64,000 bases of DNA. It comes from a virus. The DNA is taken from IMG/VR virus record IMGVR_UViG_3300031555_003080, positions 49,285-113,284 of that record. One strand, 5' to 3'. Below, piece by piece: positions 59,480 through 60,026 of this stretch (positions within the stretch are counted from its first letter, which is position 1; each line of letters begins with the position of its first letter). The position numbers were made by a program, and so were the translations under genes. The notes under the pieces were generated by a model. That model was not told where the DNA came from and made no database searches. It worked only from the letters and a program-made list of their open reading frames with translations.

Positions 59480-59519
59480 TGGAGCTCCATGACGGACTCG
59501 AACCCCCGACCTGCTGATT
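59480..59519 (-). tRNA. tRNA-Thr (TGT) 3' exon (loop nt 37-38, anticodon stem 3' strand, T-arm, acceptor 3' strand, CCA)
   Basis: AA TCAGC AGGTC GGGGG TTCGAGT CCGTC ATGGAGC T CCA; acceptor complementary 7/7 to the 5' exon GCTCCAT. Confidence 0.6.
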
Positions 59520-59990
59520 TATCTATCAATGCTCAGTTACTTCCTCCAATCTTAGATAATTGTTTTGCTAATTCATATTCATTAGCAAAACTTATCCCTT
59601 TAGTTTGCCCATTTTTAGGAGGTACAAATCTTAAAGTTTTTTCTACTGAGCACTCTGCTACTGGAATTAAATAGCATTGGTTGTTCCAATAAGTAGCAAA
59701 GAAATCAATTTCGTCAGCGCTATATCTCTCATTTTTAACTCCTGCGCAATTCACATGAGTAGTTCTACAGGAGAACTTAATTGCACTATCATCTTTAAGA
59801 GAGGAAGTTTTGACTTGGATTTTTAATAGCTTGCCATTTACATCTGCAATGAAATCATATTTTGAATTATCGCCATAAGGAATGCTTACTCCACATCCTT
59901 CTGCTATAAAAGCAGTAAGGCATTGTAATTCGGTAAGATTACCTTTTTGTTTAGAAGTTAATTCCATATTATTTTCACTGAGTTTGATTG
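59520..59990 (-). other. 471-nt intervening sequence splitting tRNA-Thr(TGT); carries a PD-(D/E)XK endonuclease ORF; its termini form a long imperfect helix
   Basis: 5' end CAATCAAACTCAGTG pairs with 3' end ACTGAGCATTGATAGATA (ATCAA/TTGAT and CTCAG/CTGAG), extending the anticodon stem. Too short to hold a group I ribozyme core in addition to the ORF. Confidence 0.5.
59533..59967 (-). CDS. PD-(D/E)XK-type (homing) endonuclease encoded inside the tRNA-Thr(TGT) intervening sequence
   Basis: 145 aa from MELTSKQKGN...; ..YDFIADVNGKLLKIQVKTS.. fits D-x(n)-(D/E)xK; start inside the intervening sequence; the called longer ORF runs into tRNA. Confidence 0.5.
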   Translation of the reverse strand: MELTSKQKGNLTELQCLTAFIAEGCGVSIPYGDNSKYDFIADVNGKLLKIQVKTSSLKDDSAIKFSCRTTHVNCAGVKNERYSADEIDFFATYWNNQCYLIPVAECSVEKTLRFVPPKNGQTKGISFANEYELAKQLSKIGGSN

Positions 59991-60026
59991 ACAAATCAGC
60001 TGCTCTACCAACTGAGCTAATGGAGC
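59991..60026 (-). tRNA. tRNA-Thr (TGT) 5' exon (acceptor, D-arm, anticodon stem 5' strand, loop nt 32-36)
   Basis: GCTCCAT TA GCTC AGTTGGTA GAGC A GCTGA TTTGT; the matching 3' part lies 471 nt downstream on the minus strand. Confidence 0.6.

Follow-up and report, generated by a model that had tools for sequence, protein, structure and literature searches.

The window analysed here is a stretch of viral DNA of 64,000 nucleotides (IMG/VR record IMGVR_UViG_3300031555_003080, positions 49,285 to 113,284 of that record), and the subject of this report is an interrupted tRNA gene within it. A minus-strand array of 37 tRNA genes fills the last 15 kb of the window. Within this array, a gene for tRNA-Thr(UGU) is interrupted by an insert of 471 nt, which separates tRNA positions 36 and 37. 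The 5' exon (60026..59991, minus strand, 36 nt) consists of tRNA positions 1-36 and ends with the anticodon UGU at 59993..59991. It is followed by the insert (59990..59520, minus) and by the 3' exon (59519..59480, minus, 40 nt), which consists of positions 37-76 with an encoded CCA. The joined exons are recognized by ARAGORN as a tRNA-Thr(tgt) of 76 nt. The coordinates of the split gene and the location of the insert after position 36, both given in an earlier note made from the letters of this DNA, are exact, and the 36|37 junction also fits the related copies described below. The cloverleaf was called perfect in that note. The acceptor stem is indeed paired at 7/7 and the anticodon stem at 5/5 positions (GCUGA/UCAGC, with the loop UUUGUAA), but the T stem contains one G.G mismatch (51:63) and one G.U pair, so that the cloverleaf is good rather than perfect. 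The split gene is flanked by tRNA-Ser(AGA) and a small RelE-like open reading frame (ORF). Each of the other seven four-codon boxes has a tRNA with U34 (or ACG) in the array, and the split gene is the sole U34 isoacceptor for Thr, filling that gap.

The insert is almost entirely occupied by an ORF of 144 residues on the minus strand (59967..59533 including the stop), with the ATG at 59967 and the stop codon UGA at 59535..59533. Only 36 nt of the insert are non-coding, 23 nt ahead of the ATG and 13 nt beyond the stop. The ORF matches the Pfam family PDDEXK_5 (PF11645) over profile positions 3-137 of 138 with 108.3 bits (cutoff 26.1, E 4e-31), and phmmer aligns it with the homing endonuclease I-Ssp6803I (PDB code 2OST) at E 5e-9. 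The top Foldseek matches of its AF2 model (pLDDT 86.7) are chains A-D of 2OST, with TM scores of 0.65-0.73 and E values down to 3e-10; the next structural neighbours are Hjc, EcoRV, SPARDA DREN, and RecU. The fragment YD...QVK aligns to the same residues in 2OST. Residues E13, D38, D42, Q51, and K53, which include those that we take to be catalytic, are invariant across nine diverse paralogues. Since these paralogues are only 45-75% identical, the endonucleases of the family appear to be active. The ORF is thus clearly a member of the I-Ssp6803I family of homing endonucleases, with putative site-specific DNA cleavage and homing. The PD-(D/E)XK assignment and the near-complete filling of the insert agree with what had been noted earlier, and only the length of 145 residues given there needs correction.

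The two ends of the insert are complementary to each other and to the anticodon. The last three insert bases, AUA (59520..59522, minus), pair with the anticodon UGU (U.A, G.U, U.A). Helix 1 is formed by the first seven insert bases i1-i7, CAAUCAA (59984..59990, minus), and the bases i-10..i-4, UUGAUAG (59523..59529, minus), and its assignment is based on the register, the covariation, and the fold. A conserved internal loop follows, in which the CA of a G-CA-UUG motif (59530..59531, minus) lies opposite A at 59983. Helix 2 consists of i9-i14, CUCAGU (59977..59982, minus), paired with ACUGAG (59532..59537, minus); the latter strand overlaps the end of the ORF, and the stop codon lies inside the helix. 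As the insert ends pair both mutually and with the anticodon, the anticodon stem is prolonged into one irregular helix of about 22 bp with the ORF as its loop. The minimum free energy (MFE) fold of a mini-precursor of the window gene is this model helix, helix 2 included, on an intact cloverleaf (-46 kcal/mol, z -3.8). The pairings ATCAA/TTGAT and CTCAG/CTGAG, and the extension of the anticodon stem by them, had been proposed before; the fold and the covariation in relatives now bear them out. The two exon-insert junctions are situated on opposite strands of one continuous helix, three anticodon base pairs apart, in a pseudo-two-fold arrangement.

The arrangement is not confined to the window. 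Relatives of the endonuclease number about 940 in a metagenome protein collection, and at least 271 copies are present in IMG/VR. The set analysed here comprises 87 copies, taken from 79 viral loci (designated by L-numbers) and the window. The intron mode of ARAGORN found a tRNA spanning the ORF in 65 of the 87, and the 36|37 junction is acceptable in all 65. Most of the remaining 22 are recognized by eye as split tRNAs that were missed owing to contig ends, read-through of TAG, or long 3' margins. Recurrence of the same plan in these copies means that the layout is not due to chance. At least twelve tRNA species are interrupted at 36|37, among them Thr-UGU, Asn-GUU, Lys-UUU, Met-CAU, Pro-UGG, Ser-GCU, Ala-UGC, Arg-ACG/UCU, Gly-UCC, Ile-GAU, Val-UAC, and Ile2-UAU. 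In their shared architecture, the last three bases of the insert pair with positions 36, 35, and 34, and i1-i7 with i-4..i-10; an internal loop and a second helix come next. In one 190-kb contig, IMGVR_UViG_3300045988_112927 (L008/L152/L196/L203), paralogous PDDEXK_5 genes split at least five tRNA genes, namely Thr-UGU, two Lys-UUU, Met-CAU, and one further gene of unassigned species. Both tRNA-Lys(UUU) genes in the sampled loci of this contig are interrupted.

A cultured phage also carries a member of the family. In Enterococcus phage EFP01 (Schiekvirus, KY549443; L329, record positions 105277-105811) an insert of 463 nt splits tRNA-Asn(GUU). The split tRNA is not annotated in the GenBank entry, where the endonuclease is listed as a 'hypothetical protein'. 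In about 28 sister Schiekvirus isolates only the flanks of this insert are matched (identity mostly 97-98%), and the tRNA-Asn at that place is uninterrupted and annotated. When the EFP01 exons are joined at 36|37, they are identical to the tRNA-Asn of phage EFDG1 at 71 of 71 positions. Comparison with insert-less alleles, which the earlier note had proposed, thus reveals a precise insertion. Close relatives are found in contigs binned with Acutalibacteraceae, Ruminococcus, and Oscillospiraceae, and the hosts are most likely bacteria (Enterococcus and gut Clostridia).

The pairing with the anticodon was assessed on 56 non-redundant junctions that represent 15 anticodon classes. In register, the paired fractions of the columns from position 34 to i7 are.93,.95,.89,.93,.82,.88,.73,.82,.86, and.68, while with the register moved by 1-3 nt the fractions are about 0.1-0.77 and for the most part 0.3-0.55. 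The anticodon is wholly paired with the insert end in 47 junctions, compared with 11.9+-2.8 after shuffling (at most 21 in any of 2000 shuffles). From one tRNA species to another, the end triplet changes with the anticodon: UGU-ACA/AUA, GUU-AGC, UUU-AAA, CAU-AUG, GCU-AGC, GAU-AUC, UAC-GUA, and UGG-CUG. Covariation was scored on 27 aligned junction constructs, which had been chosen for pairing in helices 1 and 2 and not for the anticodon helix. Altogether 93.1% of the cells are paired and 19 of 20 pairs show compensatory changes, with a covariation score of 0.80 versus 0.25; none of 500 shuffles reaches the observed value, and slid controls are at 28-41%. The anticodon helix is 95% paired with compensatory changes in 3 of 3 pairs, helix 1 is 89% paired with 6 of 7 pairs changed on both sides, and helix 2 is 96% paired with all five counted pairs compensatory. 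Because many of the pairs are G.U, the helix is a feature of the RNA and not an inverted repeat of the DNA. Across the family helix 2 has 5-9 bp and often holds the stop codon. The internal loop of the window subfamily, A opposite CA (...CAA-A-C... / ...G-CA-UUG...), occurs in 22 strict cases and seven tRNA species. Another subfamily has UGAC / CUGAUG instead, possibly a tandem G.A or k-turn-like element; the fragment GCTGATTTGT at the 3' end of a tRNA-Lys intron, considered as a relic of a Thr exon, is in fact this conserved motif. Several possible sources of the anticodon complement at the DNA level were also considered and rejected. A target-site duplication would yield a direct and not an inverted repeat, excision and re-ligation of DNA would give non-complementary overhangs, and a cruciform with both junctions mimicking the target fits only the lineage of the window itself.

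These data allow the bulge-helix-bulge (BHB) reading of the earlier note to be evaluated. It would make the insert an intron of the archaeal type, cut by EndA and joined by RtcB. The pairing of the ends, which prolongs the anticodon stem, is what such an intron would display, and there is a general precedent in archaeal rRNA, where BHB introns can carry homing-endonuclease genes. A BHB motif consists of two 3-nt bulges on opposite strands separated by 4 bp, and for a 36|37 junction this would require pairing of 33 with -3 and of 34 with -4. The required register is at the chance level (about 0.3-0.55), whereas 68-95% of the positions are paired in the register 34:-1, 35:-2, 36:-3, and i1:-4 onward. 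The pairing is unbroken across both junctions, with no bulge that is conserved or present in the MFE fold, and the junction is 36|37 rather than 37|38. In addition, the most likely hosts are bacteria, which are not known to have EndA, and no EndA-like protein was found among the scanned proteins of the window or among the structural neighbours of the intron ORF. The BHB reading is not supported and is contradicted by the register test; its probability is close to nil. A likeness to archaeal BHB introns (in tRNA, and in rRNA with LAGLIDADG genes) is nevertheless evident, as both are ribozyme-free inserts in which a helix joins the junctions pseudo-symmetrically and which may carry a homing-endonuclease gene, and removal by a protein endonuclease and a ligase would be expected here as well. 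The differences lie in splicing by EndA and RtcB for the archaeal introns, as against a continuous helix, a 3-bp stagger, probable bacterial hosts, and no EndA found for the phage insert.

Self-splicing is the other established way of removing such an insert. To our knowledge, the tRNA introns of bacteria and of their viruses are taken to be self-splicing, and protein-spliced ones are considered an archaeal and eukaryal trait. No group I (RF00028), group II or other ribozyme was found at E<=10 when the Rfam models were run over the insert and its surroundings (59380-60130), none at E<=1 in the six longest inserts of the family (659-805 nt), and the whole window at the Rfam gathering thresholds gave tRNAs only. 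Identical codons were used for identical amino acids at a frequency of 0.36-0.62 in 20 related ORFs, flat along the whole gene, and from this synonymous-site profile a hidden 200-nt block of RNA constraint is not present. In the window, U ends the 5' exon and A ends the insert. For the 56 family junctions the last base of the 5' exon is U in 42, G in 7, C in 5, and A in 2, and the last intron base is A in 30, C in 17, G in 7, and U in 2. Since exon and insert ends vary over all four bases, the boundaries are incompatible with group I or group II rules. A group I intron is therefore rejected, with no core in the covariance search, 36 nt of non-coding sequence, no RNA constraint, and no U/omega-G rule. 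So is a group II intron, with no Rfam match, an ORF that is a nuclease and not a reverse transcriptase, and the boundaries CAAUC...GAUA. The view taken earlier that a group I intron would not fit into so small an insert, and that none is present, is upheld by the search, the synonymous profile, and the boundary bases.

A compact or novel ribozyme might still overlap the ORF or be made of the terminal helices, so that the insert is removed without protein. Two facts could be quoted for this: the endonuclease family is otherwise met with in genuine group I introns of tRNAs in bacteria (PMC13011429; PMC1995217), and conservation extends to both the terminal helices and the internal loop. However, in addition to the permissive Rfam searches, the 36 nt of non-coding sequence, the absence of a constrained block in the ORF, and splice-site bases that break the rules of both intron groups, the motif of the internal loop is not the same in different subfamilies. 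Both scissile bonds would also lie inside a fully paired helix, which would be unfavourable to in-line attack. Cryptic self-splicing is thus very improbable. As a separate observation, one related locus (L200, 2306-2362) has a sub-threshold match to the F. prausnitzii HDV-like ribozyme (31 bits, E 0.02), located immediately downstream of a split tRNA-Pro that holds an 805-nt insert.

The insert is a mobile element, judging from the sequence comparisons, and the histories of the endonuclease and the exons are uncoupled. The similarity of the window to other phages is limited to the split tRNA (84% over 552 nt), with unrelated flanks. A 98%-identical endonuclease is harboured by a tRNA-Thr whose acceptor and T arms differ. 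Distances between endonucleases show no correlation with those between exons (Mantel r 0.15, p 0.16). At least 120 viral contigs contain the target sequence without an interruption. Free-standing relatives of the endonuclease also exist (L145, L165, and Pectobacterium phage My1), and those of My1 and L145, distant members of the family, are located beside intact tRNAs. A scan of viral contigs with a 14-nt junction pattern gave 119 matches, almost all by chance, with a single real copy (L037). A scan with an 18-nt 3'-junction pattern gave seven contigs that were already known and 40 chance matches; hence the sub-lineage of the window has no relatives with decayed ORFs among the contigs scanned. 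Logan contigs that encode near-identical proteins are ordinary genomic DNA and contained no circular-intron or spliced junction.

The features described above allow us to propose, with modest confidence, that the insert is a mobile tRNA intron which lacks a ribozyme, has a helix of new geometry, and is spliced by enzymes, being cut within the helix and then ligated. At 36|37, a homing-endonuclease gene with short structured ends has invaded the anticodon loop of a tRNA-Thr(UGU) gene of the phage. In the precursor RNA the insert end pairs with the anticodon, followed by helix 1, the internal loop, and helix 2. A protein endonuclease would then cut both strands at the junctions, and these cuts, on opposite strands 3 bp apart, would leave 3-nt 3' overhangs. 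The exon ends, kept together by the tRNA body, would be rejoined by an RNA ligase, restoring a functional tRNA. Plausibly, the excised intron could be closed into a circle by this ligation as well, and the back-spliced junction of the window intron would then read GAUAGAUA|CAAUCAAAC.

Candidates for the later steps are encoded in the window itself. The possible sealer is an RNA ligase (34047..35456, minus) that matches phrog_968 at E 8e-63 and the Pfam family RNA_ligase (PF09414) with 27.5 bits, just over the 27-bit cutoff. If the ends need healing, a metallophosphoesterase (19869-20672) and an adjacent AAA_33 Pnk-like kinase (20638-21144), both assigned by Pfam and together spanning 19869..21144 on the minus strand, may act with it. 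They belong to an RNA-repair and RNA-metabolism set within 15272-47072 that includes the RNA ligase, the Pnk-like kinase, three metallophosphoesterases, a Thg1-like protein, a Ro/TROVE-like DUF2828 protein, PIN-PhoH, and an RNase T-like exonuclease. An RlaP-like nucleotidyltransferase in the same region is below the Pfam cutoff (21.4 versus 23 bits) and matches phrog_388 'nucleotidyltransferase' at E 4e-20. With a ligase and end-healing enzymes encoded in the window, sealing of the nick between positions 36 and 37 is plausible for either end chemistry.

The principal alternative, which the earlier note had also put forward, is that the endonuclease gene homed into the tRNA and inactivated it; it would spread by drive despite the cost, with no re-ligation. 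The hairpin would then serve the mRNA of the element, as a closed stable end, as a site for its release from the poly-tRNA transcript by a double-strand RNase, in the manner of the intervening sequences of rRNA, or in the control of translation. This is a serious alternative that we consider rather unlikely. It agrees with the uncoupling of mobility from the exons in the Mantel test, with near-identical endonucleases in differing exon backgrounds, with the insertion being present in just one of about 30 sister isolates in the case of EFP01, with the free-standing relatives adjoining intact tRNAs (My1, L145), and with the location of the stop codon and the ORF end within the helix. Two orphan copies (L166, ~1460-1960, and L206, ~1440-1930) consist of the endonuclease and the hairpin without a tRNA body. 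Their flanks retain only a remnant of the size of an anticodon stem-loop, for example TCTGCTTTGT|...|AAGCAGA, between two intact tRNAs. Decayed exons are also known (L170, L183/184, and a few partial cases).

On the other hand, a hairpin that acts only in the mRNA has no obvious need to pair base for base with the anticodon up to the exact exon boundaries, nor to re-adapt its last 3 nt in every tRNA species that is newly colonised. A helix that uses the exons up to both boundaries and adapts to each anticodon argues in favour of splicing. Decay of the exons is rare, about 3-4 of the 87 copies. Intact back-up tRNAs near the interrupted ones are not in excess (4 of 64, versus a background of 4%), and in the window the split gene is the only U34 isoacceptor for Thr, which would otherwise be missing. 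At least five interrupted tRNAs are tolerated by one phage. These four observations likewise suggest that the tRNAs are restored.

Several points weigh against the enzyme-spliced intron that we prefer. The exon cloverleaf is 99.2% paired in 12 alleles and 16 of 21 pairs are compensatory, but these changes cannot be taken as a proof of function, as the Mantel test indicates that endonuclease and exons are not co-inherited. Because the two distances are uncorrelated, the exon variation mostly predates the insertions and does not prove later selection. The same result, together with the 98%-identical endonuclease in a different tRNA-Thr, means that the integrity of the exons could be explained by frequent recent homing into intact alleles. 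The orphan copies keep the hairpin in the absence of a tRNA body, so the hairpin may serve the element itself. Free-standing relatives likewise count against splicing. A ligase of the window type does not appear in EFP01 or among Enterococcus phages. Neither RNase III nor EndA was found among the proteins scanned in the 64-kb window, and these provided no candidate nuclease. A double-strand RNase of the host is possible, yet RNase III leaves a 2-nt stagger, so its geometry does not match the 3-nt stagger expected here. A signature search of 2.8 Mb of related loci yielded no ORF-less short introns, only spurious hairpins.

Two other loci came up in connection with short introns. L327 was examined as an ORF-less intron and discarded since it is not a tRNA. 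Two calls made by the intron mode of ARAGORN in L383 (218-379 and 1330-1445), namely a tRNA(cta) and a tRNA-Leu(tag) with introns of 87 nt and 40 nt, respectively, could be false positives or other small inserts.

A bolder form of the proposal assigns the cutting to the intron-encoded enzyme. The PD-(D/E)XK endonuclease would cut insert-less DNA on both sides of the anticodon and precursor RNA at equivalent positions, with a 3-nt 3' stagger centred on the anticodon and its complementary triplet, and a ligase would seal the exons. This would constitute a third kind of tRNA intron, based on neither a ribozyme nor a BHB. I-Ssp6803I reportedly cuts its DNA on both sides of the anticodon, leaving 3-nt 3' extensions, a stagger equal to that expected in the RNA. 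Further hints in this direction are that the left half and the centre of the helix repeat the DNA target, that no ORF-less derivatives are found, and that the putative active-site residues are invariant. [quoted passage not shown] In most lineages, however, helix 1 is unlike the right-hand part of the DNA target, and the structural neighbours nearest to the intron ORF are all DNA enzymes. A splicing role for this endonuclease is doubtful, less probable than inactivation of the tRNA.

It is important to compare the insert with known systems, the nearest of which are the group I introns of cyanobacterial tRNA-fMet(CAU) and of tRNA-Arg(UCU). [quoted passage not shown] The Synechocystis tRNA-fMet intron is 655 nt long with an ORF of 150 residues, and all introns of this type that bear a homing-endonuclease gene exceed 500 bp (PMC13011429; PMC1995217). 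These introns and the phage insert share a PF11645 endonuclease of similar size (150 and 144 residues for fMet and the window), a target in the anticodon loop with a palindromic arm, and mobility. These introns have a ribozyme core, and the one in tRNA-fMet is inserted at 33/34 after U33 (PMC13011429; PMC1995217). The window insert has 471 nt and no ribozyme; its site, 36/37, lies across the anticodon from the fMet site, and its 3' end pairs with the anticodon.

The intervening sequences (IVS) of bacterial 23S rRNA are excised by RNase III, and the fragments are not re-ligated, so that the rRNA works in pieces. They resemble the phage insert in replacing a loop on a long helix, sometimes with an ORF, without a ribozyme, and in excision by a double-strand RNase. 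They differ in the lack of ligation and in the 2-nt overhangs of RNase III, whereas the phage tRNA would need ligation and has a 3-nt geometry. In the anticodon-loop repair of phage T4 (cleavage by PrrC, healing by Pnkp, and sealing by Rnl1) phage enzymes also mend a tRNA, and analogous ones are encoded in the window; however, that system repairs damage inflicted by the host at 33/34 of tRNA-Lys and does not remove an encoded insert. Free-standing endonucleases of phage tRNA clusters (T4 SegB, and those of My1 and L145) also live in tRNA arrays and target them, but the window copy lies within a tRNA, and a conserved helix is made by its ends together with the anticodon. A report on gut jumbo phages lists 80 'stand-alone' PDDEXK_5 genes and does not mention tRNAs (PMC12880540). 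No description of a ribozyme-less, anticodon-pairing tRNA insert was found in the literature searched.

If the insert is spliced, viruses of bacteria would have a protein-dependent splicing pathway with a new substrate geometry, and phage RNA ligases and end-healing enzymes would have a routine task besides the repair of damage. Splicing would also bear on the origin of BHB-type introns from ribozyme introns that carry endonuclease genes. Should the intron endonuclease prove to be the splicing enzyme, the intron would encode its own splicing endonuclease, which would be categorically new. If the insert is not spliced, the family would be a clear case of a selfish endonuclease that erodes phage tRNA arrays and keeps the hairpin for itself. 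In either case these tRNAs are missed by standard tools, and EFP01 with its intron-less sister phages offers a ready experimental system.

Some additional features of the window and the related loci were recorded. The RelE-like toxin ORF (59178-59444, minus; phrog_1213, E 3e-7), the immediate downstream neighbour of the split tRNA, was considered as a part of the element and rejected, since it is not adjacent to the element at any other locus. The tRNA array includes suppressor-like tRNAs with the anticodons CUA and UCA (52416-52506 and 61296-61369, minus). Under the standard code the window has a coding density of 85%, and its ORFs end in TAA in 45 cases, TGA in 13, and TAG in 5; read-through of TAG is apparent in some related loci (L157, L175). 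A tRNA with the anticodon UAU (Ile2-like, 58675-58769, minus) reaches 95 nt because its variable arm has about 23 nt, an unusual feature in an Ile tRNA. The ARAGORN call at 54587-54660 (minus) has a 2-nt anticodon ('gc') and an Rfam tRNA score of only 34.6 bits, and may be a degenerate or odd-looped tRNA.

Two more ORFs (27449-28345 and 35429-35995, minus) share similar motifs of the CxCxCG type. The first matches PHROG families of HNH and homing endonucleases, and the second abuts the RNA ligase gene and has weak Pfam matches. By eye, the region 15272-47072 also contains an NAD-salvage cluster (NadE, NAMPT, and PRPP synthase) and macro and NADAR domains. An ORF of 822 residues (30764-33229, minus) has Major Vault Protein shoulder and repeat domains (PF11978, E 3e-21; PF17795). 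Recoding of stop codons had been suspected at 30-33 kb because of a plus-strand ORF of 896 residues (30176-32866), which is only a shadow of the 822-residue ORF.

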